Shown: positions 19,507 to 46,481, counted from the stretch's first letter. The stretch is 46,551 bases of DNA from Candidatus Fermentibacteraceae bacterium (GCA_041686025.1 JAWLEP010000022.1:1-46551), one strand, 5' to 3'. A program made the numbers and translations. The notes: a model not told the origin generated them from the sequence alone.

Positions 19507-19509
19507 CAC

Positions 19510-20552: not shown

Positions 20553-20555
20553 GGA

Positions 20556-21530: not shown

Positions 21531-21554
21531 TCGTGCCAACGGATTGGAACAGCG

Positions 21555-28150: not shown

Positions 28151-28208
28151 CCCCTCGGCAGGGACGCGGCTGCTTGCCGGCCGGCCTCCCCGAGATTATC
28201 CTGCCCCC

Positions 28209-28703
28209 ATGAGATACGAGCAGCTCTTTGCAGAGCTTCACGATGCCGGCATTCGCTACCTCGTGGCCGGGGGGATGGCGGTGAACCTGCATGGCTACGT
28301 CCGGGCGACCCTCGACCTGGATCTGATCGTATCCTTCGGGGACCGGAACCTGTCCGCCTTCATCGGCCTCGCCGCAGGCCTCGGCCTCTCTCCCACAGCC
28401 CCGGTGGAGCTGGGGGACCTGGCAGCTCCGGACAGGCGCAGGCTGTGGTTCGAGGAGAAGGGCATGAGGGCCTTCTGCCTGCACTCCCCCGACGACCCGC
28501 TGCACAGGGTGGACGTTCTCATCGACCCCGGCATCGATTTCGAAGGCCTCTACTCCCGCCGGCTGGTCCTGGACCTTCGGGGAACCCCGCTGCCTCTGGT
28601 CTCGCTGCGCGATCTGATAGAGATGAAGGAGCGCTCGCCGAGGGCGCGGGACCGCAGCGACGCCCGGGAGCTGCGGGCTCTGGAGGATGAGCTTGAGCGC
28701 TGA
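28209..28703 (+). CDS. Nucleotidyltransferase (AbiEii/DUF6036-like)
   Basis: YLVAGGMAVNLHGYVRATLDLDL (GG...DxD), VDVL, LIEMK...R.RD..D. Confidence 0.8.
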   Translation: MRYEQLFAELHDAGIRYLVAGGMAVNLHGYVRATLDLDLIVSFGDRNLSAFIGLAAGLGLSPTAPVELGDLAAPDRRRLWFEEKGMRAFCLHSPDDPLHRVDVLIDPGIDFEGLYSRRLVLDLRGTPLPLVSLRDLIEMKERSPRARDRSDARELRALEDELER

Positions 28704-28893
28704 CCGGCCCTTTCCCCGCAGGGAGTACCTGAGGAGGTGCCTGTCGCTGTCGACGGAGGAGCGTTTCGACGCCGCCGTGGAGCTTATGGACCTGGTGCTG
28801 GAGGCCATGCCCCGGCGCACCCTGGAGCTGGCCAGAAGGCGCAGGGGAGGAGAGGAGCCTAGCCGAAGCGCTTCCGGCGCTCCTCCTCCATGA
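28687..28893 (+). CDS. Small helical protein, putative partner/antitoxin of the nucleotidyltransferase
   Basis: 68 aa overlapping the NTase stop, LSLSTEERF motif; 3' end overlaps convergent hypB. Confidence 0.5.
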   Translation: MSLSADRPFPRREYLRRCLSLSTEERFDAAVELMDLVLEAMPRRTLELARRRRGGEEPSRSASGAPPP

Positions 28894-29530
28894 GACAGAC
28901 CAGCTCCTCCACCCCGGACCCCTCCAGGGCCGAGACTCCCAGGACGGTGACGTCGGGATTGAGGCTGCGGCACTCCTCCCCGGCCCGGCGGGCGTCGAAG
29001 GGCAGCTTCTCCTCCAGGTCGGTCTTGTTTATCAGCATCAGGTCCACCTTGCTGAACAGGCCCGGGTACTTCAGCACCTTGTCGTCCCCCTCGGGCACCG
29101 ACAGCATTCCGGCGGTGAGGTGCTCGCCCAGGTAGAAGCCGCTGGGGCATATAAGGTTGCCAACGTTCTCGATCACCAGGTACCGCCAGCCGTCCCGAAA
29201 GGGCCTCATCTCCTGCAGCGCCCGGGACACACCTTCGGCATCCAGGTGGCAGGAGCCCCCCGTCTCTATCTGATGGGCGAAGGACCCTGCGGCCTCCACC
29301 CGCTCGGCGTCCCGGCGGGTCTGCACATCGCCCTCTATCACCGCCAGGCTGTCCCCCAGCCGCTCGGCCAGCCGCTCCAGGAGCGTGGTCTTTCCCGCCC
29401 CCGGAGAGCTCATGAGGTTGAGGCACAGCAGACGGGACTCCTCGAAAGCCCTGCTGTTCTCCCCGGCGATGCGGTCGTTCTTCCGCATGACGGCCGAGCG
29501 CAGCTCGACCTTCCTGCCCTTGGCTGCCAT
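28859..29530 (-). CDS. hypB: Hydrogenase nickel incorporation GTPase HypB
   Basis: NLMSSPGAGKTTLL, VIEGD, TGGSCHLDA, IENVGNLICP, EGDDK..KYP, INKTDL; start ATG 29530. Confidence 0.96.
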   Translation of the reverse strand: MAAKGRKVELRSAVMRKNDRIAGENSRAFEESRLLCLNLMSSPGAGKTTLLERLAERLGDSLAVIEGDVQTRRDAERVEAAGSFAHQIETGGSCHLDAEGVSRALQEMRPFRDGWRYLVIENVGNLICPSGFYLGEHLTAGMLSVPEGDDKVLKYPGLFSKVDLMLINKTDLEEKLPFDARRAGEECRSLNPDVTVLGVSALEGSGVEELVCLMEEERRKRFG

Positions 29531-29550
29531 CTCTCTCCCATCGCTTCTGG

Positions 29551-29895
29551 TCAGTCGGGGCTCTCCACCCTGACGTAGTCCACCACCAGGTCCCTGCCCG
29601 AGAGGACCTCCCGGGCCATGGCCCCGCACCCGGGGCAGGGGGTGTACATGTCGTCGGTCTCGAACTCGCTGCCGCACTCCCGGCACCGAAGGCGCGCCGG
29701 GGTGCGGTCAATTACGATCTTCGGGGAGCCCATGCCCGCCTCCTCCATCAGGGCGTCCAGGCAGAACTCCAGGGAGGCGGGATTGACGCAGGACAGCCGG
29801 CCCACCGTCATGCCTATCTCCATCACGGTGTCACCCTCCTCCAGGGACTGTCCGATCCGGTCGATTATGGCCTGTGAGAGGCTCAGCTCGTGCAC
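29551..29895 (-). CDS. hypA: Hydrogenase nickel metallochaperone HypA
   Basis: (M)HELSL N-terminus from GTG 29895, CRECG and CPGCG zinc sites, SGRDL. Confidence 0.95.
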   Translation of the reverse strand: MHELSLSQAIIDRIGQSLEEGDTVMEIGMTVGRLSCVNPASLEFCLDALMEEAGMGSPKIVIDRTPARLRCRECGSEFETDDMYTPCPGCGAMAREVLSGRDLVVDYVRVESPD

Positions 29896-29896
29896 G

Positions 29897-30880
29897 TCAG
29901 CAGATCCTGGGAAGGTGCTCGCCCAGGGGCATGGCCAGCAGCCGCCTGGCCCCGGCCCGGGTGTGCAGCACCACGTCTCCGGGGCCCTCAACCACCCTGC
30001 CGATCACCGCTGCGCCGCGGCAGAGGGGCTGGGAGGCCAGGACCTCCATGGCCCGTCGCTGATGGCCCTTCGGCAGCACCGCCAGAAAGCGGCCCTCGCA
30101 CGCCATCTCCAGAGGGTCGATCCCCACCAGGTCGCAGACCGCCCTGACCCCGGGCCTCACCGGAATGGCGGCCTCGTCCAGCTCGATCCTGCAGCGGCTG
30201 GCGGCGGCCACCTCGTTGAGGGTCTGGGCCAGCCCCCCCCGGGTGGGGTCGCGGAGGGTGTGTATCTCGCAGGAGCGAACAAGGGCCGCCACCGGCTCCA
30301 CCAGGGGCGCGGCGTCGCTCTTCAGGTCCGCATCCAGCCCCAGGCCCTCCCGCAGTGAGAGGATGGTGGCTCCGTGGTCGCCCACCGGTCCGCTTACCAG
30401 CACGGTGTCGCCGGGAGCGGCCAGGGCCGCCGAGATCCTCACGCCCTCCGGGACCACTCCCACCCCGGCGGTGGTGACGAAGGCCCTGTCCGCGGCCCCC
30501 CGCTCCACCACCTTGGTGTCGGCGGCCACCAGCTCGGTGCCGGCCTCCCGGCAGGCATGCCCCATGGAGTCGGCCCACCTGGCCAGGTCGTCCCCCTCCA
30601 GGCCCTCCTCCAGGACGAAGGCCGCGGCCAGGCCCGCCGGCCGCGCCCCCACCATGGCCAGGTCGTTCACCGTCCCGCAGACCGCGAGCCTGCCGATGTC
30701 TCCGCCGGGGAAGTCCTGGGGGGTGACGGTGAAGGAGTCGATGCTGAGGGCCCGGTCCCCCGCCATCCCCGAGTCCTCCCCGGCCCGGAGCTGCTCTGTC
30801 CCCAGCCTGGGCAGGAAGAGGCTCTCCACCAGCTCGGACGTCATGCTGCCTCCGGCGCCGTGACCCAGCTTGAGTATCAA
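29897..30880 (-). CDS. hypE: Carbamoyl dehydratase HypE
   Basis: LGHGAGG, FPGGDIGRLAVCGTVNDLAM, DTKVV, RDPTRGG, C-terminal PRIC; TTG start overlapping hypD stop. Confidence 0.95.
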   Translation of the reverse strand: MILKLGHGAGGSMTSELVESLFLPRLGTEQLRAGEDSGMAGDRALSIDSFTVTPQDFPGGDIGRLAVCGTVNDLAMVGARPAGLAAAFVLEEGLEGDDLARWADSMGHACREAGTELVAADTKVVERGAADRAFVTTAGVGVVPEGVRISAALAAPGDTVLVSGPVGDHGATILSLREGLGLDADLKSDAAPLVEPVAALVRSCEIHTLRDPTRGGLAQTLNEVAAASRCRIELDEAAIPVRPGVRAVCDLVGIDPLEMACEGRFLAVLPKGHQRRAMEVLASQPLCRGAAVIGRVVEGPGDVVLHTRAGARRLLAMPLGEHLPRIC

Positions 30881-31938
30881 TGCAGTCCCCTTCCCCCGTA
30901 CTTGAACCATGCCGCGCAGCTGCCCTCCGAGGACACCATGCACGGGCCCACCGGGCTGCGGGGGGTGCACGCCTCCCCGAACAGGGGACAGTCCGGCGGC
31001 TCGGCCGAACCGGTGAGCACCTCGCCGCAGAGGCAGCCGGGATCGTCCTCGGCGGGCGGAACCTCCACCGGCCACCTCCGGGCGGCGTCCATCTCGGCAA
31101 GCTCATCGGCAAGGCGGAGGCCGCTTTCGGGGATCACTCCCAGTCCCCGCCACTCGGTGTCGCACCGCACCAGCGCCCTGTCCATCATCCGGCGGGCGGC
31201 GGGGTTGCCCCCGGCGGATGCCGCGGGGTAGGCGGACTCCGCTCCCGGCTCCTCCTTCACCAGCATCTGCAGTATCCGCTCCAGGGCCCTGACGATCTCG
31301 GGGGGCTCGAACCCCCCCACCACGCAGGGGACGCCGTACTGCTGCGAGATGCGGCGGAAGGGCGCCAGGCCCGTTATCACCGCCACGTGGCCGGGGCAGA
31401 GGAAGGCGTCCACCCGGGTTCCGGGAGCCTCCAGGACCGCCTCCATGGCCGGGGGGATCAGCTTCATGGCGCAGAGGGCCGTCAGATCGACCCCCTGCTC
31501 GCGGGCCTGCAGCAGCGCGGCGGCAATGGTAGGGGCGGTGGTCTCGAAGCCCACCGCCAGGAAGGCCGACGGCCCGCCCCGGGCCGAGGCCAGCCTCAGG
31601 GCGTCCTCGGGGGAGGCCACCACGTCTACGTCCGCCCCCCCCGCCCGGGCGTCGGCCAGGGAATCTCTCGAGCCGGGGACCTTCAGCAGGTCGCCGAAGG
31701 TGTAGAGCCGGACCCCGTGCCGGAAGGCCATGGCCATGGCCCGGTCGATGTAGCCGGTGGGGGTGACGCACACCGGACAGCCGGGGCCGGAGAGCAGCCG
31801 CACCTCCGGGGGCAGCAGCCGGTCCAGGCCGCTGCGGTGGATGGATACGGTGTGGGTGCCGCAGACCTCCATGACGGTAACCGGACGGCCCAGCTCGGCG
31901 GAGAGCTCTCCCGTCCTGCCCGGGGGGTCAGAGCCCAT
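30877..31938 (-). CDS. hypD: Hydrogenase maturation protein HypD
   Basis: MEVCGTHT, GPGCPVCVTP, GFETTAP, PGHV, GPCMVSSEGSCAA. Confidence 0.97.
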   Translation of the reverse strand: MGSDPPGRTGELSAELGRPVTVMEVCGTHTVSIHRSGLDRLLPPEVRLLSGPGCPVCVTPTGYIDRAMAMAFRHGVRLYTFGDLLKVPGSRDSLADARAGGADVDVVASPEDALRLASARGGPSAFLAVGFETTAPTIAAALLQAREQGVDLTALCAMKLIPPAMEAVLEAPGTRVDAFLCPGHVAVITGLAPFRRISQQYGVPCVVGGFEPPEIVRALERILQMLVKEEPGAESAYPAASAGGNPAARRMMDRALVRCDTEWRGLGVIPESGLRLADELAEMDAARRWPVEVPPAEDDPGCLCGEVLTGSAEPPDCPLFGEACTPRSPVGPCMVSSEGSCAAWFKYGGRGLH

Positions 31939-32146
31939 CGGCCATCTCCCGCAGGTACGAGAGCGTCTCCAGGGCCTCCTCCTCGGGCAGCACGGTGATG
32001 GCGTATCCGGCGTGAATCAGGGCGTAGTCCCCCACCGAGGCGCCCTCCACCAGGTCCATGCGGACCCGCTTGCGGACCCCCGGGAGCTCCACGATGGCCT
32101 CGGGGCCGTCCATCTCCACAATCCTCATGGGCACGGCGAGGCACAT
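31928..32146 (-). CDS. hypC: Hydrogenase chaperone HypC
   Basis: MCLAVP N-terminus, VGDYALIHAGYAI. Confidence 0.97.
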   Translation of the reverse strand: MCLAVPMRIVEMDGPEAIVELPGVRKRVRMDLVEGASVGDYALIHAGYAITVLPEEEALETLSYLREMADGL

Positions 32147-32167
32147 CTCAGACCGCTCCCTTCCCGT

Positions 32168-34414
32168 TCATGAGTTGCGCAGGGTCCGGGCTGCGGCGCA
32201 GGCCGCCTGACCGGCGGCCACTGCGCCGTCCCCGGCGGGCAGCCGCCTGCCCACCAGGGCCCGGACACCCGACTCCTCTAATCTACTCAACGTCCGCCGC
32301 AGCAGAAGGGCGTTGGCGAAGCAGCCGCCACCCAGGGCCACCGCCAGACCCCGGGGCTTCGCCTCGCGCACCGCCGCGGCCGTCATGGCGTCGGCCAGGG
32401 TGTTGTGGAAGCGGGCGGCCCTGACGGCCGCGGCCGCGCCGTCCTGCAGCATCTCCAGAAGGCCCGGACGCAGGTCCACCACGCCGTCGTCGATTATCCA
32501 CGGGTAGGCACCATCCTCGCCGGGGTCCGCCAGCGACTCCAGCAGCATGGCGGCCTCCGCCTCGTAGGTCATGGCCCGGCCGCAGGCACCCAGGAGGAAG
32601 GACACCCCGTCGATGAGGCGGCCGGCGCTGGAGGTCTGCGGCGACAGCCTGCCGGACTCGGCCACCCTGCGCAGCCGCCCGTCCCGGGGCGGAAGGCCGC
32701 AGGCCAGCAGCAGCGACTCCGCCATGCGGGCGGGTTCCCTGGCGGCGGCCTCTCCTCCGGGCATGGGCACCGGCAGCAGGTGAGCGGCCCTTCGGAAGCG
32801 GGCCATGCCCCCCACCAGGACCTCGCCTCCCCAGACGGTGCCGTCGGTCCCCCAGCCGGTGCCGTCCATGATGAGGCCCACCGCCCGGTCCCCGGGCCCC
32901 AGGCCCTCCTCTGCCATCACCGCAGCCAGGTGGGCGTGGTGGTGCTGCACCTCCACGGTGCGGCCGGCGGGAACCAGCTCTGCCGCCAGCCTGCGGGAGT
33001 GGTAGGCGGGGTGCATGTCCACCGCCAGGACGGAGGCCTCCACCCGGTAGGTGGCCAGGGCCCGCCGGAGGTCGCGGGTCCAGACCTCCTGCACGTCCAT
33101 GTCCTCCAGGTCCCCCACCGGACGGCCCGGGAGGATCTCCCGGCCCCGCATGAGGGCGAAGGTGGCCTTCATGTCCCCTCCGGCGGCCACCACGTCCCCC
33201 GGTGCCTCGAAGCGGACCGGGAGGGTTCCCGGGACCCACCCCCGGGCCCGGCGCACCAGCACCGTCAGGTTCCCCCCGGGCGCCTTCACCGTCCTGGCCA
33301 CGGAGTCGTCCAGGGCGGCGGTGATCTCCCGGCGGTGCAGCAGCAGGGCGTCGGCCCCCAGGCTCCGGGCCCGCCCGTCGTCGGCGATTATGGGCATGGA
33401 CGTGGGGTTGCCGGAGGTCATCACCAGAAACCGGGGCGAGTGAGCCATCAGAAGATGGTGGACGGGGGAGGAGGGCAGCATCAGGCCCACGGTGGACATG
33501 CCCGGGGCCACCTGCCGGCACACAGGGCTGTCTTCCCGGGCCTCCAGCAGCATTATGGGGGTCCGGGGGCTCTCCAGCTCCCGCGCCTCACTGGGCCCTA
33601 TATCGGCGGCCTCGGCCGCCGTCTCCAGGTCGGGCACCATCACGGCGAAGGGCTTGGAGGGCCGGCCCTTCATCCCTCGAAGCCGGACCACCGCATCCTT
33701 CCGGGCGGCGTCACAGCAGAGCAGGTAGCCCCCCACCCCCTTCACCGCAAGCACCGACCCGCCGTGGAGCATCCTCCCGGCTGCGCGGTAGGGGTCGCCC
33801 TCCACAGCCCTGCCGTCGGGGGTTTCCAGGACCACCTCCGGCCCGCAGGCGGGGCAGGCCAGGGGCTCGGCGTGGAAGCGGCGGTCGGCGGGGTCCGCGT
33901 ACTCGGCGGCGCAGTCGGGGCACAGCGGGAAGTCGTCCATGGCCGTCCGCTCCCGGTCGTAGGGCAGCCCCCGGGAAATGGTGTACCGCGGCCCGCAGGA
34001 GCTGCAGGAGATAAGGCCGTAGCGGTGCCTGCGGGCTTCGGGGTCCGACATCTCCTCCAGGCAGTCGGGGCAGGGGGAGAGGTCGGGGGTTAGGCCCGAT
34101 AGCCGGGGCCTTGAAGAACGGCTGCGCCGTATGGAGAAGCCGTCCCCGCCCTCGGCCTCGATCCACTGCACGTCCATCTCCCTGACGCTGGCCGCCGCCG
34201 GCCCGCCCTCCCGGACCTCCCGCAGGAAGCCCCGCACCTCTTCGGGGGGCCCCTCCACTTCCAGCAGCACCTCGCCGCCCCGGTTGAGGGCCCAGCCGGA
34301 GAGGCCCCTGGCCGTGGCGGCCCGGTGCAGGAAGGGACGGAAGCCCACTCCCTGGACCACCCCGCGCACCTCCGCCCGGCAGCGCACAGCGGTACGGACC
34401 TTTCCATCGCGCAT
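32168..34414 (-). CDS. hypF: Carbamoyltransferase HypF
   Basis: GVVQGVGFRPF, CxxC zinc fingers with CGPRY and RRFHAE, KGVGG, QHHHAH, DGTGWG.DG..WGGE. Confidence 0.97.
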   Translation of the reverse strand: MRDGKVRTAVRCRAEVRGVVQGVGFRPFLHRAATARGLSGWALNRGGEVLLEVEGPPEEVRGFLREVREGGPAAASVREMDVQWIEAEGGDGFSIRRSRSSRPRLSGLTPDLSPCPDCLEEMSDPEARRHRYGLISCSSCGPRYTISRGLPYDRERTAMDDFPLCPDCAAEYADPADRRFHAEPLACPACGPEVVLETPDGRAVEGDPYRAAGRMLHGGSVLAVKGVGGYLLCCDAARKDAVVRLRGMKGRPSKPFAVMVPDLETAAEAADIGPSEARELESPRTPIMLLEAREDSPVCRQVAPGMSTVGLMLPSSPVHHLLMAHSPRFLVMTSGNPTSMPIIADDGRARSLGADALLLHRREITAALDDSVARTVKAPGGNLTVLVRRARGWVPGTLPVRFEAPGDVVAAGGDMKATFALMRGREILPGRPVGDLEDMDVQEVWTRDLRRALATYRVEASVLAVDMHPAYHSRRLAAELVPAGRTVEVQHHHAHLAAVMAEEGLGPGDRAVGLIMDGTGWGTDGTVWGGEVLVGGMARFRRAAHLLPVPMPGGEAAAREPARMAESLLLACGLPPRDGRLRRVAESGRLSPQTSSAGRLIDGVSFLLGACGRAMTYEAEAAMLLESLADPGEDGAYPWIIDDGVVDLRPGLLEMLQDGAAAAVRAARFHNTLADAMTAAAVREAKPRGLAVALGGGCFANALLLRRTLSRLEESGVRALVGRRLPAGDGAVAAGQAACAAARTLRNS

Positions 34415-34933
34415 CTAGAACCCAATCAGCGCAGGGACCCGGTATCCGTCCACCACCAGGCGCCCTCCTGAAATGAGGCTGCAAAGCTCCTCCACCGCGG
34501 TCTCGGCCGCCCGGCGCACCGGTGGCGACAGCCCCTGCCCCAGGAACTCCGGAGGGTCGATGGTGATCCCCCAGATCTCCCAGGCCGGCATGGGACCCTC
34601 CCGGAGCCGGGACAGGGACTCCATGACGGAGGAGACGTCGGACTGGTGGAAGGATGGGGAGTAGGCGCGGGGCGCGGTCCTGCCCCTTGCCAGCCTCCCG
34701 GGATGGTCGCCGCAGACGGCGTCCAGGAAGAGGATGGAGGCGGTATCCGGCAGCAGGTCCCATACGGCGTACAGGTCACCGGCCATCTCGGCGTAGGCCA
34801 GGCCGGGCCGGGGGCCCAGCCGTTCCCGGAGGGCCTGCAGCATGAAGATGCCCACGCCGTCGTCGCCCGCCAGCGTGTTGCCCACGCCGGCCAGCGTCAG
34901 CTCTACCCCCGTCTGAATACCTTCACCCTGCAC
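34415..34933 (-). CDS. Hydrogenase maturation endopeptidase (HybD/HycI family)
   Basis: LAGVGNTLAGDDGVG, LFLDAV, SFHQ, GLSPPV; nearest in-frame start is GTG 34933 (uncertain). Confidence 0.88.
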   Translation of the reverse strand: MQGEGIQTGVELTLAGVGNTLAGDDGVGIFMLQALRERLGPRPGLAYAEMAGDLYAVWDLLPDTASILFLDAVCGDHPGRLARGRTAPRAYSPSFHQSDVSSVMESLSRLREGPMPAWEIWGITIDPPEFLGQGLSPPVRRAAETAVEELCSLISGGRLVVDGYRVPALIGF

Positions 34934-35628
34934 CTGCAGCCGCTGTCGCCGGGCTGTGACTCCTCCAGCTTCAGCCTGGCCCCGCCCATCCTGCCGATGT
35001 AGCCGGCCAGGTAGTTGTAGAAGAGGACGCACAGGTCTCCCCCCAGCTCGATGCCCTCCTCCCCGCAGAGCTCCCGGATGAAGCAGGTGCCCACGTCTAT
35101 CTCCAGCTTCTCGGCGCCGTCGTAGGAGGGGGAAAGCTCCCAGGCCGGGGCGAACTGCCTCACCGCCAGGTCCAGGGCTTCCTGAAAGTCTTTGGGGACC
35201 TGGTACCGGGGCAGCTGGGTGGCCAGTGTTCTGCCGGCCATGGTTCCCACGGCGGGAAGGCTCCCTCCCAGCGTATGCCTGAAAACGGAGGCTACGGAGA
35301 GCAGCCTGACCCCCAGGTCCTCCAGGGCCGCCTTCCGCCTCTCGGGGTCGTCGGGGACGTGGGGCAGGGGGACGTTTGGGGCCAGCCTGCTGGCCAGCTC
35401 CAGCGTGTAGGGCTCGTGGTAGTGGTCCTCGGACCTCTCCACGCCCCGGTGCTCTATGGCGTCTGAGGGGCAGATCTCCGAGCAGCTCAGGCAGCCGAAG
35501 CACTCCTTATCGTGCTCCACCACCGGGATCGCCTTCTCCTCGTCGAACTCGAACACGTCGGTGGGGCACTCGTCAACGCAGAGCTGGCAGCCCACGCACG
35601 CATCTTCGTCGATCTTTATCTCGATCAC
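34903..35628 (-). CDS. 2[4Fe-4S] ferredoxin fused to a V4R-like domain
   Basis: CVGCQLCVDECP and CFGCLSCSEICP; C-terminal G..AG..LA...TCFIRE...LC.....YLAGY...G...C pattern of V4R-clan domains. Confidence 0.8.
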   Translation of the reverse strand: MIEIKIDEDACVGCQLCVDECPTDVFEFDEEKAIPVVEHDKECFGCLSCSEICPSDAIEHRGVERSEDHYHEPYTLELASRLAPNVPLPHVPDDPERRKAALEDLGVRLLSVASVFRHTLGGSLPAVGTMAGRTLATQLPRYQVPKDFQEALDLAVRQFAPAWELSPSYDGAEKLEIDVGTCFIRELCGEEGIELGGDLCVLFYNYLAGYIGRMGGARLKLEESQPGDSGCRCRVKVFRRG

Positions 35629-37025
35629 TGCTCCGCCCCCCTCTCGAACTTCCTGACCCTCTTGCCGTTACGCCGCACTTCCACGATCATGGGCATCCTG
35701 CCGGCCACGTGGGTGGCGCAGGCCAGACACGGGTCGTAGCAGCGCAGGGCGAACTCCACCCCGTTCATCAGCAGGTTGTCGTCACCGGTATCGGCGAAGA
35801 GGGATGCCAGGGCCGTGATGCTGTGGTCTATGGCGTCGTAGTTGTTCTGGGTGGCCACTATGAGGTTGGCCCCGGTAAGGCTCCCGTCGTCGTCGGTCTC
35901 GTACTCGTGGATCAGTATGCCGCGGGGGGCCTCCACCATGCCCACGAAGCGTCCGGCTCCCGGCTGGGCCTCCGTAAGGAGATCGCCGCTGACGCCGGCG
36001 GAGGCCAGCTCGCCTATCCGCTCGGCGCAGTGAACCATCTCCACCAGGCGAGCCTCTATGAAGTCCAGGGCCGACTTCCGGGGATGGCCCTTCTCCCGAT
36101 ACGCGGCCAGCATCTCGGTGGCCTTGGGGGTGGAGAAGCTCTGGTTTACGTTCAGTCGGGCCATGGGGCCTACGAAGAAGTTGGACTCGGTGTCACCCCG
36201 CAGGCGCACCGACTTCATGTAAGAACCCTCCATGGCGTGCTCCACCAGGTGGCCGGCGTAGTCTGGGGCCTCGAAGGTCCTGGTGACGTTGCCGTCATCG
36301 TCCATGACGACGCAGGGGGCCTGGAAGAAACTTACCTGTCCGTCTTCGGAGAGGCCGGCGGAGCTGAATGGCAGCTCGGCCGCCTCTCTGATCTCGGCCA
36401 TGGCTTCCAGCTTCTCCTCCACCACGGGGATCATCTCGTCCAGTATGTCCAGGGCCTCCTTGCCCCAGTCGGCCATGCCGGACATCTCTTCGTCGGAGGG
36501 GGATGAGGTGATGCCTCCGGGTATGGAGGTCACCGGGTGAACGCCGCGGCCGCCCACGGTTTCCACCACCCGCTGACCGATGCTTCTCAGCCGCAGGACC
36601 TTCTTCACCACTTCGGGCTGCATCTTGAGGAGGTTGAAAACGTTGCGCTGCTCGGGCGGCGCGCTCAGCCCCGCCAGTATGTCCGGCCCCGTAAGCACGA
36701 AGGTGCTCAGGGCGTGGGAGTGCAGTATATGGCCCATGTACATCAGCTCGCGCAGCTTTGCGGCAGCTTCCGGGATCTCGGTGCGCAGACCGTTCTCTAT
36801 GGCGGTCACCGAGGCCATGTGGTGCGCCGCGGGACACACGCCGCAGATACGGGCGGTGATCAGGGGCATCTTGAACAGCTCCATGCCCTCCAGGAGCTTC
36901 TCGAAGCCCCTTATCTCCAGGACCTGCAGGTGTCCGCTGCTTACCGCCCCGGAGTCGTCTGTGTCGAGGATTATCCTGGCATGACCCTCGATTCTTGTTA
37001 CTGGGTTTACCGTAATGCTCGACAT
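35625..37025 (-). CDS. [NiFe]-hydrogenase large subunit, group 3 (MvhA/3c-like)
   Basis: PVTRIEGH, RGFEK, L1 RICGVCPAAH, VEAPRG, L2 YDPCLACATH followed by a cleavable C-terminal extension. Confidence 0.93.
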   Translation of the reverse strand: MSSITVNPVTRIEGHARIILDTDDSGAVSSGHLQVLEIRGFEKLLEGMELFKMPLITARICGVCPAAHHMASVTAIENGLRTEIPEAAAKLRELMYMGHILHSHALSTFVLTGPDILAGLSAPPEQRNVFNLLKMQPEVVKKVLRLRSIGQRVVETVGGRGVHPVTSIPGGITSSPSDEEMSGMADWGKEALDILDEMIPVVEEKLEAMAEIREAAELPFSSAGLSEDGQVSFFQAPCVVMDDDGNVTRTFEAPDYAGHLVEHAMEGSYMKSVRLRGDTESNFFVGPMARLNVNQSFSTPKATEMLAAYREKGHPRKSALDFIEARLVEMVHCAERIGELASAGVSGDLLTEAQPGAGRFVGMVEAPRGILIHEYETDDDGSLTGANLIVATQNNYDAIDHSITALASLFADTGDDNLLMNGVEFALRCYDPCLACATHVAGRMPMIVEVRRNGKRVRKFERGAEQ

Positions 37026-37061
37026 CTCTCTACGCTCTCTTCCGGATGTATGAGAGACGGG

Positions 37062-37976
37062 TCATCGCTTCCCCGCCCATTCCCTGAGCTCGACTGTAGG
37101 CTTGCGGTACATCACCGGCGAGGAGAGAGAGTAGGCGTAGAAGGTCTTGGCCTCCTTCTCCATGTACTCCCGTATCTCCTTCTCCTCTATGTCGGTGAGA
37201 AGGCTCATCCTTCTGGCCACCATGGTCCGTATGTCCAGCTGAGGCTCGGTGATGATGGAGACCGAAGGGCCGGCACAGCCGGCGCAGGCCACGCCCCTGT
37301 TGGGGCACTGGGCCTGGCATCGGTTGAGGGTCACGGAGCCCAGGCAGATTACGCCCTGGCTGAGAAGGCATACGTCCTCCTCCGGTGCCGTGACCGCCCC
37401 CCTCTTCAGGGAGACGCCCTCCCGCTTCTCCATCCTCCTCTCGCAGTCGGCGCACACGGGCCTGGCCACCATCTCGGGGACGTCTCCCCCCAGGATGGTC
37501 CTGATGGCCAGCGCGATGTAGTAGGGATGGGGCGGACATCCGGGGAGCTGGAAGTCCACGTCGACCACCTCGTTGATGGGTATGACGCTCTCCTCCAGCA
37601 CCGGTACCCCCTGGGGCAGGCCCTCCCCCGCCGCGGAGGTGGGCAGACCCCTGTAGGCCTTGTCCAGTATGGTGTCCCGGCCGTAGAGCCATCCGATGCC
37701 GGAGGGCCCTCCGTAGGAGGCGCAGGTGCCGAAGGCCACCAGCTTGTCGCAGCTCTCCCGCATCTTCTCCAGGGCGTGGCGGTCGTGGTCGCTGCGGACC
37801 GCGCCCTCCACTATCCCGATGTAGGCCTTGGGGTAGCCCTTCTCGTCCATCAGGACCGGGATGCGGACGAACTCCACCTCCTCCACCAGGTTGAGAAGCT
37901 TGTCGTGCAGATCTACCATGGCCACGTGGCAGCCGGAGCACCCGGAAAGCCACTCGGTGGATACCTTCGCCCTCAC
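37062..37976 (-). CDS. [NiFe]-hydrogenase small subunit, group 3 (MvhG-like, three Fe-S clusters)
   Basis: WLSGCSGC, GTCASYGG, PGCPP, distal CADC...CLL.QG.ICLG...C.A.CP...C.GC.GP; no Tat signal; GTG 37976 overlaps upstream stop. Confidence 0.92.
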   Translation of the reverse strand: MRAKVSTEWLSGCSGCHVAMVDLHDKLLNLVEEVEFVRIPVLMDEKGYPKAYIGIVEGAVRSDHDRHALEKMRESCDKLVAFGTCASYGGPSGIGWLYGRDTILDKAYRGLPTSAAGEGLPQGVPVLEESVIPINEVVDVDFQLPGCPPHPYYIALAIRTILGGDVPEMVARPVCADCERRMEKREGVSLKRGAVTAPEEDVCLLSQGVICLGSVTLNRCQAQCPNRGVACAGCAGPSVSIITEPQLDIRTMVARRMSLLTDIEEKEIREYMEKEAKTFYAYSLSSPVMYRKPTVELREWAGKR

Positions 37977-38467
37977 TGCTCCACCTCCTCGATCTCCATC
38001 TCCTTCAGGCATGCGTTGGGCCCGGCATGGATGATCTCCAGGTGGACCCTGGTGCCCGGCATCACCTTCTCCATGGCCCCGGCAAAGACGCCGTGGGACA
38101 TGTAGCAGAGGGACTGCTTCTGCTCGTGGCCGTACCGGAACAGGGCGTTGCGAACCATGCAGGTGGTGAAGACCAGGCGCATCACCTTCTTTCCGTCCCG
38201 CTCCTCGATCAGGGAATCATGCTCTCCGAGGAACGGCTCGAACTCCCAGACGATGCCCCTCTTCTCCAGGGCGTCGCTCAGTATCTTCACCGCCTCTTCG
38301 GGGTCGTCAGTCTGCTCGGTTCCCTCAACAGCCTCCATCCCGAACCTCTTGCCTGCCAGCATTCCTATGGAGAGGCTGCTCTGGCCCAGGTTCTTCTCCG
38401 ACGCGTGGGCCAGCGAGCCGAGCAGAAACGCGACGCCGTGCAGCCTGTCCAGCTGCTGCTGCATCAT
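37973..38467 (-). CDS. Stand-alone V4R-clan (ligand-binding) protein
   Basis: G..AGKRFG, FTTCMVR, LCYMSHGVFAG, HAGPNAC three-Cys pattern; AGGAG RBS before ATG 38467. Confidence 0.7.
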   Translation of the reverse strand: MMQQQLDRLHGVAFLLGSLAHASEKNLGQSSLSIGMLAGKRFGMEAVEGTEQTDDPEEAVKILSDALEKRGIVWEFEPFLGEHDSLIEERDGKKVMRLVFTTCMVRNALFRYGHEQKQSLCYMSHGVFAGAMEKVMPGTRVHLEIIHAGPNACLKEMEIEEVEQ

Positions 38468-38519
38468 CGATCTCCTCTCTCGTCGACGGGCATAGGTCAC
38501 GGAGAGGCCGCTGCCCCGG

Positions 38520-39872
38520 CTACTGCCTATCGGCCTTCAGCGCAAGCATGGCGGCTTCCAGCTTGCCCTTTTCCAGGTAATCCAGCGCTACCTGGAGCTT
38601 GCCGATCTCCGCGGGGCTTGTATCCTTGCTCTGCAGTTGCTCTATCCTGTCGGTCAGGGCCATCTTCAGGGCCCCTATCTGCCGTTCCACGGTGTCCGCA
38701 GACTCCACCATCCGCCGGTAGCGTCTGGAGTCCCGGGGGGCGGGCTCGGGCTCCGGCTCGACGCCCTTCTCGGGCTCCGGAAGGGGCTCCTCCTCCGCCT
38801 GGGGCTCGGGAGGGGCGGCCTCTTCGGGGGCCTGCTCCTCCTCTTCCACGTCCACTACGATGTATGGGGAGGGTCCGCCGCCGGCCTGCCCCCTGCTTCC
38901 CGCCGCCGCCTCGGGCTCCACGTCCGTCTTGGATGCCTTCAGCTGCCTGTCGGCGGAGGCGGCGCCGCTGAGGAAGCCCAGGTGCCTCTTCACCGTATCC
39001 AGGTCCACGTCGTGGTCCGGGCCCAGCATGCGGGCCAGGACCATCCTGCCCGCCGCCTTCAGCTGGCGGACGTTCATGCTGAATGTCTCGGCGATGTAGT
39101 CCACCACCTCGTCGCTCGGCGGCTCCAGGCCGGCGTAGCGGAAGAAGTTGTCCAGGATCTTCCTCCGCCCCTCGAAGTCCACTATGTGCAGCTCTATCAC
39201 CAGACCGGAGGTGAGCCGCGAGAAGAAGGCCTCGTCCAGGTCCAGCAGCCTGGAGGGACTCTCGTCGGAGGCGGTCACAAGCCCGTGCCGGTTGCGGGGC
39301 ATGCGGTTCATCACCGACAGCAGGAAGCGCTGGAAGGGCATGTCGCCCTGGGAGAACTGTATGTCGTCCAGCAGCAGGAGCTCCTGGGAGGTGAGCCAGT
39401 CCCTCAGGTGCCGCTCCATTCCCGCCGTGGTGCAGTGCTGGTACTCGATCTGCAGGTCCACCGTGTTCACCAGCGCCGCCTTCCGGGAGGTGGAGTTGGC
39501 TATGGCGGTGAGCAGGTGGGTCTTGCCCTGGCCGGTTGCGGCATGGATCATCACCGGGGTGATGCTCTTCCATATCCGGGGCACCAGGGCCACCGTACGG
39601 GCGATCTCACAGGGGTAGAAGTTCTCGTCGGTGGTGACGTAGTTGGAGAAGGTCATCTCCTCGGGGTACACGGCCAGCAGGGCCTCCCGGAAATCCTCCT
39701 CGCTGTCCAGGCTGGCGGTAGTAAGGTGCGGAAGGCTTCCCACCCCGCCCAGGGCCCGGGCGAAGTTGATTACCCTCTTCGCGGTCTGCTCGTCCAGCAG
39801 GCCGGTGTCGGAGCATATCTCCAGAAACTCCCTGAAATCGAGCCTGCCCGGCTCTCCGCTCTCGTCGCTCAC
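38520..39872 (-). CDS. DnaA/Hda-family AAA+ ATPase paralog lacking DNA-binding domain IV
   Basis: TFSNYV...EN, Walker A ATGQGKTHLL, Walker B LLLLDDIQF, SRLTSGL, NVRQLK; followed by a Pro/Glu-rich linker and a helical tail instead of RDHxTV. Confidence 0.85.
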   Translation of the reverse strand: MSDESGEPGRLDFREFLEICSDTGLLDEQTAKRVINFARALGGVGSLPHLTTASLDSEEDFREALLAVYPEEMTFSNYVTTDENFYPCEIARTVALVPRIWKSITPVMIHAATGQGKTHLLTAIANSTSRKAALVNTVDLQIEYQHCTTAGMERHLRDWLTSQELLLLDDIQFSQGDMPFQRFLLSVMNRMPRNRHGLVTASDESPSRLLDLDEAFFSRLTSGLVIELHIVDFEGRRKILDNFFRYAGLEPPSDEVVDYIAETFSMNVRQLKAAGRMVLARMLGPDHDVDLDTVKRHLGFLSGAASADRQLKASKTDVEPEAAAGSRGQAGGGPSPYIVVDVEEEEQAPEEAAPPEPQAEEEPLPEPEKGVEPEPEPAPRDSRRYRRMVESADTVERQIGALKMALTDRIEQLQSKDTSPAEIGKLQVALDYLEKGKLEAAMLALKADRQ

Positions 39873-39876
39873 CCCT

Positions 39877-40554
39877 TCAGCCCTTCGAATCGAGTCCTTC
39901 CATCAGCCGGGAGAGCGCCAGGGGCAGCATGCCCATCCTGGTGCCCGGGCCGGCGGCGGCCAGGAGGAAGTCCCCCTCGCCGCAGGGGCCCATTACCAGA
40001 CTGAATCTCTCGTCCTCCACCAGCATCCTGCCCGGAGGCCGGTCGCCGTAGCTCTGCAGAAAAGCCGTCGCCGCATCCACGGCCGCAGGCAGCGAGTCCT
40101 CGAAGTCCGGCGGCATGTCCGACCCGGCCTTCCTCTCGCCGCGGGCGGACAGGATGCACGCGTATACAAAGCGCTCCGAGTCCTCCACCAGTTCCCGCAT
40201 GAGCTGGGACATGGAATCCTCCTCGGGCTCGGCGGCCTGGGCCTTGCGGCGCTCGTCCCGCTCCTTCAGAGCCCACATGATCGTCCTGTGCAGGTCCTTC
40301 TCTATGGTCCTCTCCCCGCTCTCCACATCCGGCTCGAAACGGAACTCGCCGTCTGTCCAGTCCACCACCTGGACCAGCACCTCCTCGCCGGCGAGGTCGC
40401 CCATCTCGGCGTGCACGAGCCGGCCGGTGTCGTAGTAGAAGCGCGCCACTGCGCCCTTCGACTCGATGGTGACCCGCCCGCTGCGCCTGCCCGCGTTGGG
40501 GAACTGCAGCAGGGCCACCAGCCCCATGTCCTTCAGCGTGCCGTTGAGTGCCAT
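39877..40554 (-). CDS. DUF4388 (PatA-N-like) domain fused to a roadblock-like domain
   Basis: MALNGTLKDMGLVALLQ...RSGRV...YYDTGRLVHA...W.DGEFRF; C-terminal YACILSARG...LLAAAG.....G pattern. Confidence 0.8.
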   Translation of the reverse strand: MALNGTLKDMGLVALLQFPNAGRRSGRVTIESKGAVARFYYDTGRLVHAEMGDLAGEEVLVQVVDWTDGEFRFEPDVESGERTIEKDLHRTIMWALKERDERRKAQAAEPEEDSMSQLMRELVEDSERFVYACILSARGERKAGSDMPPDFEDSLPAAVDAATAFLQSYGDRPPGRMLVEDERFSLVMGPCGEGDFLLAAAGPGTRMGMLPLALSRLMEGLDSKG

Positions 40555-40571
40555 TGTCCGTGCGGCCCTTC

Positions 40572-41159
40572 TCAATCCAGCCTGAAGTGCCTTATGACCT
40601 CCTTGCTCACTATCTTCAGCGTATTCATCACCCCCCGGCCCCTGGTGGCCACGGATTCGGTCACCGGAAGGCCGGGGTCCAGACCGAGCTCGCTCTCTAT
40701 CGTTCCCGGCGAAAGCAGCGGGCTCATGTCCCTCTTGTTGTACTGCAGAACCATGGGAAAGCCCTCGCTGTCGTAGCCGAAGCTGGCCAGGTTCGCCTGC
40801 ATCATCCGGAAGCTCTCCAGGTTGTCCTCCAGCCGGTCGGTCTGGGAGTCGGCCACGAAGACGATTCCGTCGGCGCCCTGGAGGATGATCCTCCGGCTGG
40901 CCTCGTAGAACACCTGCCCCGGAATGGTGTAGAGGTGGAAGCGCAGCGAGAAGCCCTCCACGTCACCCAGGGAGACCGGGAAGAAGTCGAAGAACAGGGT
41001 CCTCTCCTCCTCGGTGTCCAGCTCCAGCATGTCCCCCCGGTACCGCTCGGCCAGCGTCCTGTGGATGAAGCGGAGGTTGGTGGTCTTGCCCGACAGGCCG
41101 GGGCCGTAGTAGACGATCTTGAAGACGACCTGCCGCTCATCGAGGTCCAGATGGGGCAT
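40572..41159 (-). CDS. mglA: MglA-family small GTPase
   Basis: KIVYYGPGLSGKTTNL, ERTLFFDF, LYTIPGQVFY..SR, GADGIVFVADS, QYNKRD. Confidence 0.93.
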   Translation of the reverse strand: MPHLDLDERQVVFKIVYYGPGLSGKTTNLRFIHRTLAERYRGDMLELDTEEERTLFFDFFPVSLGDVEGFSLRFHLYTIPGQVFYEASRRIILQGADGIVFVADSQTDRLEDNLESFRMMQANLASFGYDSEGFPMVLQYNKRDMSPLLSPGTIESELGLDPGLPVTESVATRGRGVMNTLKIVSKEVIRHFRLD

Positions 41160-41652
41160 CGTCCTCCTTGCCTACGTTGAAGATCTGGTCGACAAGGTTG
41201 AGGGCGTACTCCCGGAAGTCGGGCATGGAGATATCCTCCCTGCCGGAGGCCTCCTTCTTCTCGGGGGGCTTCTCCATGCTGTCCAGGAGCTTTCGGGCCG
41301 CCTTCCTGGTGGCCAGCCGCACCCTTCCGATGCGCCTGTTGTCCTCGAACACCACCACCAGCATGGAGCGCTGGCCGATGAGGGATATGTGGATGTTCCG
41401 CTTCTCTCCCTGCTGGAGGAGTATGGAGAAGTGCTCCTCGCCCACGATGTTCGCCACCTCCCTTGTGGCGGCGAACATCCCGGCCACCAGCGCGGCCAGA
41501 GCGGTAGCGTTGAGAGACTCGGTCTGCCCCGCGCTGCTGATGCAGACGCCCTCCCGGCTTATCAGGAGAGCCGTAACGGCATTGGTCTCCTTCACAATGC
41601 CCTTAAGGACCTCTCCCGTCCTCCTGGTGTTGGAAAAGCTCCTTGTTGCCAT
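41137..41652 (-). CDS. mglB: MglB-family roadblock/LC7 protein (GAP)
   Basis: ALLISREG, LAALVAGMFAAT..VA..VGE..F..L.QQGE, IGRVRL; directly upstream of mglA. Confidence 0.88.
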   Translation of the reverse strand: MATRSFSNTRRTGEVLKGIVKETNAVTALLISREGVCISSAGQTESLNATALAALVAGMFAATREVANIVGEEHFSILLQQGEKRNIHISLIGQRSMLVVVFEDNRRIGRVRLATRKAARKLLDSMEKPPEKKEASGREDISMPDFREYALNLVDQIFNVGKEDDAPSGPR

Positions 41653-41691
41653 GTGACGGGGGCTCCTCTCCGGCCGCTCCGGTGGCTCTCG

Positions 41692-42048
41692 CTACAGAAG
41701 CGCCTTCTCCAGTTCGGGTGCGCGCCTGCGTACCTGAAGGCGGACGTTTCCGAGGTTGGCGTCGTTGGCGGCCACTACCGCCAGAAGGGCCTCTGCTCCC
41801 AGGGCCGTCATCATGACTATGCCGCCCTTGTACTCCATCATCGCCTGGTCGAGGTCCTCCAGGCCGAGCTCCCGGCCCACGCTCTCCGCGGAGCCCATTC
41901 CCGTGGAGACCATGGCGCCGATGGCCTCGGTGTCCGATGACCCGGTGGAAGCGGCGTCTATGACGAAGCCGTCCCTTCCCACGCAGACGGCCACCTCTAT
42001 GCCGCTTACCTCCACAAGCCGGTTCAGTACCTCGTTAAGACCGTTCAT
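41692..42048 (-). CDS. Roadblock/LC7 domain protein
   Basis: L..L..V.GI..AV.VGRDGFVI...E.IGAM...ANLGNVRL; AGGAG RBS. Confidence 0.9.
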   Translation of the reverse strand: MNGLNEVLNRLVEVSGIEVAVCVGRDGFVIDAASTGSSDTEAIGAMVSTGMGSAESVGRELGLEDLDQAMMEYKGGIVMMTALGAEALLAVVAANDANLGNVRLQVRRRAPELEKALL

Positions 42049-42092
42049 TCTCGCTCCTCTCAGGAAATCCCATGAAGACAGAAATGCCCCAG

Positions 42093-42121
42093 AACTTAAT
42101 CACTGTACCTTTTCTTCGCAA
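42093..42121 (-). promoter_or_regulatory. Candidate sigma70-type promoter of the roadblock-hydrogenase operon
   Basis: Minus strand TTGCGA (42121-42116), 17-nt spacer, TAAGTT (42098-42093) in an AT-rich patch about 45 nt upstream of the first gene. Confidence 0.4.
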
Positions 42122-42439
42122 GAACCATTCCTGTATATACTTGAACCTGTGCCGGCCGCTGTCCAGTGGCTGCGGGTCGGACCGGCGGCCTCCCGGCCCG
42201 CCCGCCGGCAGTCGAGCAGAGCGATGATGACGCTTGCCTGAGCCCCAGAACCGCTCGCCGACGAAGCGCTTGCACCCCAGCGGGGCTCCATCCGGCCCCA
42301 TCGTCTTCCGGGCGGACATTCCGGGGGAGTGCGCCGGATAGCCGGTGGTCTGCGGGCTGGGGGCGACACTTGTTAATCCCCGCGGCCGATAGAAGAGTAT
42401 GGTCTCCGTACGTTCGCACCGTTTCGAAGGGAGAAGCAC

Positions 42440-43360
42440 CTGCTCTACCTGGCCCTGGCGGTACTCAGCAGCACGTCCATCGCCCTGATCTTCAAGTTCA
42501 GCGAGTCCCGGGGGATGAACCGGTACGTGGTGACCACGGCCAACTACATGGTGGCCTCCACGGTCTCCCTGGCATTTCTGCTGGGCCGCGGGGTCCTGGG
42601 CCGGCTGGGTCCGGGGGTGGTGGACTCCTTCCTGAAGGAGGCGCCGGAGGCGCTGGCCGGAGGGAGCTTCGGCCCACTGGCCAGCCTGGGCTGGGCCGCC
42701 GCCGTTGGTATTCCGGCGGGCGTGCTCTACTTCCTGGGCTTCATCTACCTGCAGAAGGGGGTCCGCGACAGCGGGGTGAGCCTGGCCGGCAGCTTCAGCA
42801 AGCTGGGGGTACTGGTCCCCATGATGCTGTCCATCCTCTTCTGGCACGAGGTCCCCACGCCGGTGCAGTGGGTGGGCATAGCCCTGGCCCTGGGGTCCAT
42901 ACTGCTGGCCAACCTGGACGTCGGCCACCCCCGCAGGGCCTTCTCCGCCTTCAGCCCCGTGCTGATCATGCTGTTTCTGATCGTGGGCCTGGCGGAGTTC
43001 AGCAACAAGGTCTACCAGAGGTACGGCAGCCTGGAGGCCAAGAGCCTCTTCCTGCTGTTCGTCTTCGGCATGGCCCTTCTGGTGAGCCTGGTCAAGAGCC
43101 TGCGGGCGGGCAGGATAAGGGCCGGCCACTTCGTAACCGGCCTGGCGGTGGGGGTCCCCAACTACTTCGCCTCCCACTTCCTGATACTGTCGCTGTCCGA
43201 GCTGCGCACCGCCGTGGTCTTTCCCATCTACAGCGCCCTGACCATCGTGCTGATCAGCCTGGCCGGCTGGCTGGGCTTCGGCGAGCGGCTGCGGGTCAGG
43301 GAGCGGTGGGCGGTGGCCCTGACAGTCGTGGCCCTGGTTCTGGTGAACCTGCAGCGATGA
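42440..43360 (+). CDS. DMT/EamA-superfamily transporter
   Basis: About 10 hydrophobic helices, LYLALAVLSSTSIALIFK N-terminus, GVPNYF, GFGERL; probable CTG start at 42440 (first ATG 42515). Confidence 0.8.
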   Translation: MLYLALAVLSSTSIALIFKFSESRGMNRYVVTTANYMVASTVSLAFLLGRGVLGRLGPGVVDSFLKEAPEALAGGSFGPLASLGWAAAVGIPAGVLYFLGFIYLQKGVRDSGVSLAGSFSKLGVLVPMMLSILFWHEVPTPVQWVGIALALGSILLANLDVGHPRRAFSAFSPVLIMLFLIVGLAEFSNKVYQRYGSLEAKSLFLLFVFGMALLVSLVKSLRAGRIRAGHFVTGLAVGVPNYFASHFLILSLSELRTAVVFPIYSALTIVLISLAGWLGFGERLRVRERWAVALTVVALVLVNLQR

Positions 43361-46443: not shown

Positions 46444-46453
46444 ACTATTCATT

Positions 46454-46481
46454 AGTGTAGCAGTTTCTGGTAGCATTTCAA
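46454..46481 (-). promoter_or_regulatory. Candidate promoter of the RAYT gene
   Basis: Minus strand TTGAAA (46481-46476), 16-nt spacer ending in TGC, TACACT (46459-46454), about 10 nt from the ATG (near-leaderless). Confidence 0.45.

Follow-up and report, generated by a model that had tools for sequence, protein, structure and literature searches.

In Table 1 of HydDB, the sensory [NiFe]-hydrogenases are group 2b, linked to histidine kinases, and, putatively, group 2c, linked to diguanylate cyclases, and no others; [FeFe] groups C1-C3 are sensory as well, with a link to methyl-accepting chemotaxis proteins (MCPs) given, again as putative, for C2 only, and all four subgroups of [NiFe] group 3 are cofactor-coupled (PMC5037454). 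The locus described here runs from 42048 down to 28859 on the minus strand of a 46,551-nucleotide (nt) stretch of DNA from Candidatus Fermentibacteraceae bacterium (GCA_041686025.1 JAWLEP010000022.1:1-46551), the whole of which is called the window. Close homologues carry the names Ca. Aegiribacteria and Sabulitectum, which makes Fermentibacterota the most likely phylum. The locus combines a group 3-type [NiFe]-hydrogenase and two V4R proteins with Roadblock proteins, a PATAN (DUF4388) protein, the small GTPase MglA and a DnaA-like ATPase. Judging by gene content here and in related loci, the hydrogenase cassette is probably a new sort of sensory hydrogenase.

Comparison with described systems

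In its proposed logic the cassette resembles the known sensory hydrogenases, its neighbours being signalling proteins instead of electron sinks. It is unlike the HydDB sensory classes in its group 3 sequence and in its V4R adaptors and Roadblock/GTPase outputs, which are absent from Table 1 (PMC5037454). All matches of the hydrogenase are to group 3 and the operon encodes no kinase or cyclase, which separates it from groups 2b and 2c; histidine or other kinases adjoin the cassette in some relatives.

According to Table S2 of PMC7894505, the mvh operon of Geobacter sulfurreducens (GSU2416-2423) consists of mvhQ (CheW), mvhR (hypothetical), mvhS, mvhL, mvhF (ferredoxin), mvhU (hypothetical), mvhP (protease) and mvhV (MCP). 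This is the gene order of the chemoreceptor cassette of Geobacterales described below, a match by order and annotation, not by sequence. The window shares with that clade the order V4R, small subunit, large subunit, ferredoxin, V4R, protease, without MvhD, save that ferredoxin and the second V4R domain are fused (Fd-V4R). It differs from G. sulfurreducens mvh in this fusion, in its Roadblock/PATAN/MglA output and in having neither MCP nor CheW. Geobacter papers list Mvh without a function, among the hydrogenases that do not serve uptake (PMC7894505, PMC8691401, PMC2669807, PMC4667449), and in a survey of Geobacter chemotaxis (PMC2577667) the words 'hydrogen' and 'mvh' occur nowhere. The initial annotation knew of no characterised system with this architecture; that statement holds only with a qualification, the same gene order, with CheW and MCP, being already on record (PMC7894505). 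Literature searches, limited to freely accessible papers, found no publication joining V4R, Roadblock/MglA and a hydrogenase.

The closest families of both hydrogenase subunits are the group 3c enzyme of MvhAGD-HdrABC (5odc) and the 7t2r hydrogenase, which are likewise cytoplasmic and share the C-terminal extension and protease. Unlike group 3c, the cassette has no MvhD, Hdr or flavin module (168 loci), scores below the VhuA and VhuG cut-offs, occupies a separate branch among the sampled rows and has V4R partners. The GTPase part resembles the group 1 MglA-MglB modules of Myxococcus and Thermus in its catalytic motifs, coupled MglB, second Roadblock and PATAN protein, and PATAN genes near group 1 mglA have already been described (PMC4316618). 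What sets it apart from these modules is its linkage with a hydrogenase and a DnaA-clade ATPase, and the available text of PMC4316618 does not mention V4R. There is also a likeness to the Bet3/Trs33 core of the transport protein particle (TRAPP) and to Asgard TRAPPC3, in the V4R/Bet3 fold, paired glycines and Cys metal site (PMC2253512, PMC10933270), and in the kinds of protein brought together (Bet3-fold, Roadblock/longin-like and small GTPase). This likeness is one of fold only (Z up to 10, 5-17% identity). The Asgard genes are reported not to share operons in general (PMC10933270).

A conserved five-gene cassette linked to Roadblock and PATAN

A scan of species genomes with an Fd-V4R alignment, restricted to the best 80 of 91 matches, gave 76 loci, of which seven (L116-L122) matched the ferredoxin domain alone and were dropped. 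Among the 69 left, the five genes for V4R, small subunit, large subunit, Fd-V4R and protease are complete in 60, where the protease comes after Fd-V4R; eight loci are cut by contig ends and one has no protease match. Thirty-six loci lie in records named as, or grouping with, Acidobacteriota, Desulfobacterota, Myxococcota, Fibrobacterota and Methylomirabilota, and 33 of these, each with at least 1.1 kb of upstream sequence, are informative. A Roadblock gene is found no more than 4.2 kb upstream in 32 of the 33 (less than 900 nt from V4R in 29), and in the last of them two Roadblock genes lie downstream. PATAN is encoded upstream in 24 of the 33, MglA in 3 and the DnaA-like ATPase in none. The other neighbours, of which 98 were scanned, vary: some loci have REC-PATAN(-Roadblock) proteins together with histidine kinases, others a second PATAN and a ParA-type ATPase, and others again three Roadblocks and a Ser/Thr kinase.

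As read from these neighbourhoods, the conserved unit is the five-gene cassette together with its link to Roadblock/PATAN. Because Roadblock and PATAN accompany the cassette so often and MglA so rarely, the conserved tie is to Roadblock/PATAN, with MglA one output of several. The initial annotation had taken a 16-gene operon as the unit, with MglA and the DnaA-like ATPase among its core parts. That unit does not survive the comparison, nor do those two proteins as core parts; of the proposed coupling between Roadblock, MglA, V4R and hydrogenase, the Roadblock/PATAN link is retained, in other phyla as well, while MglA, the ATPase and the hyp genes fall outside the core. The hyp genes (hypF, C, D, E, A, B; 28859..34414, minus strand; assigned by Pfam) adjoin the cassette in 7 of 20 relatives' regions, never in the window's order, and in none of the 36 other-phylum loci, and for this reason are placed outside the conserved unit. 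They are the sole hyp set found in the genome by tblastn and, on this evidence, are its general maturation set, appended as passengers.

Sister clades with other outputs

Genomes of the order to which a Geobacter record (G061) belongs matched the V4R profile in 55 of 201 cases, with five matches of the Roadblock type and 51 lower-scoring ones; G061 itself carries Roadblock-type and MCP-type cassettes together. Nineteen loci taken from the lower-scoring matches define a chemoreceptor clade. All 19 read V4R, small subunit, large subunit, ferredoxin, second V4R, protease, chemoreceptor, and cheW lies directly upstream in 14. The chemoreceptor has HAMP-type repeats at its start and an MCP signalling domain, without a sensor domain; Pfam was run on five receptors and four CheW proteins, the others being assigned by similarity. 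A search with hidden Markov models (HMMs) for a docking domain common to the MCP N-terminus and proteins of Roadblock-type loci returned no match. A 400-genome sample of the phylum of G061 gave four more matches, one of which, L191, has no signalling neighbour.

A third clade came to light in metagenomes, scanned with V4R clusters of more distant kind, 80 of 152 matches being kept. The small subunit comes next after V4R in all 80 loci, and Roadblock and/or PATAN occurs in 38 of the 42 with enough flank. Typically a REC-PATAN protein precedes the cassette, and a Roadblock, an OmpA and a coiled-coil protein follow it; five loci have a different small GTPase with two Roadblocks (PATAN-GTPase-Roadblock x2). 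The Roadblock of this clade is only about 30% identical. Large subunits are about 40-45% identical between the three clades, that of the window being about 45% identical to that of the MCP clade.

Two features of the third clade may be recorded here. At L205:8558-11138 and kin, OmpA and a 610-residue coiled-coil protein, the C-terminus of which is Roadblock-like by eye, follow the cassette; this arrangement resembles the group 1 Rup neighbourhood (PMC4316618). Seven of 43 metagenome large subunits (L243, L256, L260, L262, L263, L265 and L266; for example L266:2306-3706) have an in-frame TGA at the second Cys of L1 (RICGT*P), beyond which the frame runs on to a normal L2, and from the sequence context this codon probably encodes selenocysteine, in an unusual position.

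Distribution within the order

The window's own order was sampled through 46 relatives, among them incomplete genomes and close kin. The V4R gene is present in 21, all of which belong to the 26 that hold orthologues of Roadblock and the DnaA-like ATPase; five genomes have the module only, without a cassette-type large subunit, and 20 have neither half. The two halves are adjacent in 17 of the 21 V4R genomes, unlinked in three of a single genus (G018, G032 and G036) and undecidable in one. The linkage of hydrogenase and signalling genes that had been noted in the window is thus conserved among the informative genomes (17 of 20), but not invariable. The condition that the initial annotation had named for its own refutation, unlinked halves in related genomes, is thereby borne out in part, by the three unlinked genomes and the five with the module alone. 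Rearranged relatives retain Roadblock or mglA immediately before V4R, and the DnaA-like ATPase follows the GTPase module in its distribution, not the hydrogenase. In eight genomes (G008, G011, G017, G023, G039, G041, G042 and G046) the cassette is the sole match to a group 3c-type query. One relative has a seemingly decayed module at L125 (G026:C25), made up of Roadblock, an ATPase fragment and a second Roadblock.

Absence of metabolic partners and phylogeny

No match to MvhD, HdrA, HdrB, HoxF or HoxU was found in any of 168 cassette loci. As a control, MvhD was found in 16 of 43 loci of other group 3 enzymes; these 43 showed no Roadblock, PATAN or V4R within flanks of only 1.5 kb. All trees made were quick ones. 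The first placed the V4R-linked large subunits on one side of a branch (38 versus 21 rows; Shimodaira-Hasegawa-like approximate likelihood ratio test, SH-aLRT, 100), and the second, made after removal of 18 rows to thin close relatives, separated 27 V4R-linked rows from 16 others, of bacterial 3c-like and, in two cases, Hox type (SH-aLRT 99). Since the rows comprised no archaeal MvhA, 3a or 3b, the trees suggest, but do no more than suggest, that the V4R-linked hydrogenases are monophyletic and stand apart from the other sampled group 3 enzymes.

The hydrogenase

The small subunit (37062..37976, minus strand) is a VhuG/MvhG-like protein of 304 residues with 13 Cys that begins right at a CxxC motif; its best match, NF045875, is below cut-off. 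The large subunit (35625..37025, minus strand; 466 residues) is group 3c-like, with VhuA as best NCBIfam match, also below cut-off, and with 7t2r and MvhA of 5odc as closest Protein Data Bank (PDB) entries. The NCBIfam scores are 306 bits for VhuA (cut-off 800) and 209 bits for VhuG (cut-off 450). L1 reads RICGVC, L2 reads CYDPCLAC, and a 27-residue C-terminal extension follows. The catalytic [NiFe] features are all intact, namely the CxxC motifs of L1 and L2, the Glu of RxEGH, the Arg of PRG, the cluster Cys of the small subunit, and the extension together with its protease, a hydrogenase maturation protease (34415..34885, minus strand; TIGR00072 over cut-off) that is part of the conserved cassette. 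The only redox partner encoded with the heterodimer is the 2x[4Fe-4S] ferredoxin domain of Fd-V4R.

A separate hydrogenase linked to MvhD, HdrA and HdrB is encoded elsewhere in the genome, on contig C49, and a partner from that locus may conceivably act in trans on the cassette hydrogenase. The C49 locus (L188, G000:C49:1844-15266) holds a pair of Hdr-type clusters in mirror-image arrangement; both include a fumarate-reductase-like flavoprotein, and one of the two sits inside an MvhD-MvhG-MvhA operon.

The V4R proteins

The stand-alone V4R/Bet3-fold protein (37973..38467, minus strand; 164 residues) was assigned through a structure model and fold searches. A Pfam scan of it gave no V4R domain match, and a search of PDB sequences with the V4R profile gave nothing below E 0.2. 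The model (pLDDT 84) resembles Bet3/TRAPP, BcsD, PoxR/DmpR, the V4R protein MJ1460 and H-NOX, and in this way bears out the V4R label given at the outset. Its best fold match has Z 10.2 and a root-mean-square deviation of 5.0 over 147 aligned positions, and the top 17 VIA rows are all TRAPP, BcsD, PoxR/DmpR, V4R, H-NOX-type or YslB. The predicted fold has helices on a four-stranded sheet, paired glycines and a putative Cys metal site, as in the V4R/Bet3/H-NOX fold. The glycine pairs G39/G43 and G126/G130 are invariant, and C103, H114, C121 and C153, invariant across two clades, form a putative metal site.

Fd-V4R (34903..35628, minus strand; 241 residues) joins a 2x[4Fe-4S] ferredoxin domain, matched by Fer4, to a second V4R domain with invariant C182, C188, C200 and C231. 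Its C-terminal half is a paralogue of the stand-alone protein (hhalign 83%, 146 columns), with the same three Cys aligned. The two parts are fused in two of the three clades and are separate genes in the chemoreceptor clade. A predicted complex of V4R, the V4R domain of Fd-V4R and Roadblock scored 0.19 against a mark of 0.32, a result that counts neither way.

The V4R family extends to proteins of Methanobacterium and Hydrothermarchaeota (clusters among P0134, P0135 and P0146), and one cluster of that set joins ferredoxin to a V4R nearer the stand-alone type. One genus of relatives (L053:1754-5772, L065:1520-5457, L134) has a duplicated module, with three extra V4R proteins, one of them XylR_N-V4R, and an aminotransferase class V gene between ATPase and Roadblock/mglA. 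A homologue of XylR_N-V4R is found on contig C40 of the genome under study.

The signalling proteins

The Roadblock/LC7 protein (41692..42048, minus strand; 118 residues, PF03259 over cut-off) is the signalling gene most closely tied to the cassette, and only two or three Roadblock matches were found in the whole 2.7 Mb genome. It is followed by an MglB-like Roadblock protein (41137..41652, minus strand; 171 residues), a probable GTPase-activating protein that matches PF03259, and NF052242 with E 1.9e-20, below cut-off. The next gene encodes a group 1 MglA of 195 residues (40572..41159, minus strand). Its catalytic motifs are intact: it carries a G1 motif (GPGLSGKT) and, as in the group 1 of PMC4316618, an intrinsic Arg beside the G2 Thr (ERTLFFD), T(V/I)PGQ (TIPGQ) and NKxD (NKRD), and it is coupled to MglB. 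Two further mglA genes lie on contig C8 of the genome (L137, G000:C8:42160 and 52347), neither with a Roadblock neighbour, one of them after hslVU-type genes.

The fourth signalling protein (39877..40554, minus strand; 225 residues, PF14332) had been labelled DUF4388-roadblock, and its C-terminal half is indeed a Roadblock domain (hhalign 96.7%). DUF4388 is the PATAN domain, and in Synechocystis PATAN binds PilB1 and PilC (10.1101/2021.06.11.447907). The genome, which is 94.75% complete, encodes five secretion or pilus ATPases, of which two score as pilT above the cut-off. Neither an MCP nor a flagellin match was found in it, and tblastn gave no match to CheW or MCP. As a marker of the module pilT proved uninformative, since all 46 of the order's genomes have it.

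The DnaA-like protein (38520..39872, minus strand; 450 residues) is an AAA+ ATPase of the DnaA/Hda clade that matches only PF00308. It scores 137 bits with TIGR00362 (cut-off 343.9), without a Bac_DnaA_C match, and 76.9 bits with the Hda model TIGR03420 (cut-off 194.8). It consists of domain III, a disordered linker and a conserved helical C-terminal domain that matches no known family and for which an ESM Atlas search gave no usable match. Walker A, Walker B and both arginines are invariant in 17 sequences, and the structural match to DnaA (TMt 0.89) is limited to domain III. The true dnaA lies at 4064-5407 of the window and scores 485 bits. A role as replication initiator is rejected on these grounds, domain IV being absent and a true dnaA present, and the cell-cycle output suggested by the initial annotation is unsupported, the likeness being restricted to domain III. 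The ATPase is best seen as an accessory of the GTPase module that is particular to this lineage.

Locus layout and transcription

The locus consists of 16 open reading frames in the order first described, co-directional and tightly packed as had been stated, with some overlapping: the successive gaps are 39, -23, 17, 4, 52, -4, 36, -4, 17, 0, 21, -11, -4, 1 and 20 nt. Pfam and NCBIfam back most of the gene labels, Pfam giving Roadblock twice, DUF4388, Bac_DnaA, the small and large hydrogenase subunits, Fer4, HycI and HypF/C/D/E/A/B-type domains. Three labels without direct Pfam support were examined separately as above (stand-alone V4R, the V4R half of Fd-V4R and the Roadblock half of the DUF4388 protein).

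The AT-rich, promoter-like patch reported upstream of the first gene is real in composition (G+C 0.49, against 0.68 in the operon), and contains a putative sigma-70-type promoter at 42137..42165 on the minus strand (-35 TGGACA, 17 nt, -10 AAGTAT). The motif recurs in relatives: ACTGGACA-N17-AAGAAT precedes the Roadblock gene in 9 of the 15 compared. The pattern matches the organism's genome once, and had been drawn from that very site. A generic sigma-70 scan of 28000-43000 listed no minus-strand promoter or terminator, nor the TGGACA-N17-AAGTAT site. No internal promoter was found by scan or composition in the 52-nt gap before V4R (38467-38520; G+C 0.69), the scan being the one that missed the upstream TGGACA site.

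The RNA runs were available as contigs, which are unable to prove one single transcript. Near-identical contigs from runs X1, X2 and X4, of two studies, lie on the signalling genes, on V4R/small subunit and on scattered hyp genes; they end at 42069-42101, a weak hint only for the promoter, and their sparse coverage of the hydrogenase genes is uninformative. Record 22 of run X3 covers 38444-39278, and X3 covers all 30 bins, flanks included, and may contain DNA. Elsewhere in the window are dnaA, dnaN, gyrB and gyrA (4064-11491), likely an origin region, a V-type ATPase cluster (17473-25835) and, near the end, an IS200-like transposase (45772-46476).

Proposed function and alternatives

On balance we think it likely, from the arrangement of genes, that the cassette encodes a cytoplasmic sensory [NiFe]-hydrogenase, responsive to H2 or redox state, with a swappable output. 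Sensing is favoured over energy harvest because the usual metabolic partners are absent and signalling neighbours are nearly always present, and it is strengthened because outputs have been swapped between sister clades, the three clades standing beside signalling genes that differ in position and kind. In the proposed mechanism, H2 or the H2/ferredoxin balance would set the redox state of the Fe-S wire of the hydrogenase and of the ferredoxin domain, the small subunit carrying electrons from H2 to the ferredoxin domain of Fd-V4R. The two V4R domains would pair as a Bet3/Trs33-like heterodimer tethered to the hydrogenase, and this pair would alter its shape or metal coordination with redox state. 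A Roadblock platform, formed by Roadblock and PATAN-Roadblock with MglB, would read the V4R pair and, in this lineage, tune the GTPase cycle of MglA. The output here is probably the steering of type IV pili: PATAN and MglA would act on pilus motors or polarity and so give H2- or redox-guided surface motility or attachment. The same cassette would, in Geobacterales, feed the sensor-less chemoreceptor and CheW.

Several observations weigh against a sensory role. The direction of the signal is read from gene content. The halves are unlinked in G018, G032 and G036, five genomes have the module without the cassette, and the orphan cassettes L191 and L272 have no signalling neighbour. Outside the phylum MglA stands beside the cassette in 3 of 33 loci, and no MglA match was found in G267, so that the GTPase step is not general. 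There is nothing unusual about ferredoxin as a metabolic partner, and the enzyme still has a C-terminal extension and a protease, as catalytic hydrogenases do. Since every one of the 46 genomes of the order has pilT, this gene is no guide to the presence of the module. A good many of the loci come from close relatives and do not count as independent cases, and the control flanks span only 1.5 kb.

The arrow of control could also point the other way, toward a metabolic, ferredoxin-coupled hydrogenase (an H2 valve or uptake enzyme) as the target of the signal, with the V4R proteins allosteric or structural and Roadblock/MglA localising or switching the enzyme. The intact catalytic motifs, extension and dedicated protease would fit such an enzyme, as would the eight relatives (G008, G011 and the others named above) in which the cassette is the sole group 3c-type match, some with hyp genes beside it, and the fact that MglA modules position proteins. 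A chemoreceptor is an input device, however, and the sister clade is tied to a sensor-less one in 19 of 19 loci; moreover, the genome already has an Hdr-linked enzyme, and we judge this alternative unlikely. A different division of labour, in which the V4R pair senses another signal (an oxidant, a small hydrophobic ligand, or a thiol/metal switch) and the hydrogenase supplies resetting electrons, appears quite improbable: the V4R genes found are tied to the hydrogenase (80 of 80 and 19 of 19 loci), which would be costly as a reset device, and in two of the three clades one V4R domain forms a single protein with ferredoxin, even though fold relatives bind phenols, palmitate, haem/NO or Zn (PMC10933270) and the module of some relatives holds additional V4R paralogues and an aminotransferase class V gene.

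It is also conceivable that two independent units share a promoter or neighbourhood through a need under the same conditions, with no coupling between them. The three genomes with unlinked halves and the five with the module alone are in keeping with this, and the hyp genes show that passengers do join this locus. Against it, the Roadblock linkage spans six phyla and recurs in a third clade whose gene order differs and whose Roadblock is only about 30% identical, and the 2.7 Mb genome has just two or three Roadblock matches; we judge mere co-location very improbable. A bolder form of the sensory reading is possible, though doubtful: a distinct, unnamed subgroup of group 3 would serve solely to sense H2 or redox state, its Bet3-fold heterodimer binding directly to Roadblock dimers and governing nucleotide exchange or hydrolysis on a small GTPase, and the same V4R pair would plug into the Geobacter chemoreceptor, making the system a bacterial, H2-gated counterpart of TRAPP/Ragulator.

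Significance

Anaerobic food webs trade chiefly in H2. If the cassette is a sensor, anaerobes possess a pathway that leads from H2 to motility, and many metagenome calls of 'group 3c' have been misread as electron-bifurcating metabolism. The long-unexplained mvh operon of G. sulfurreducens would then be a direct test case in a genetically tractable model. If the proposal is true, Bet3-fold, Roadblock and small GTPase proteins would act in one bacterial pathway, which would bear on the origin of TRAPP-like regulators.

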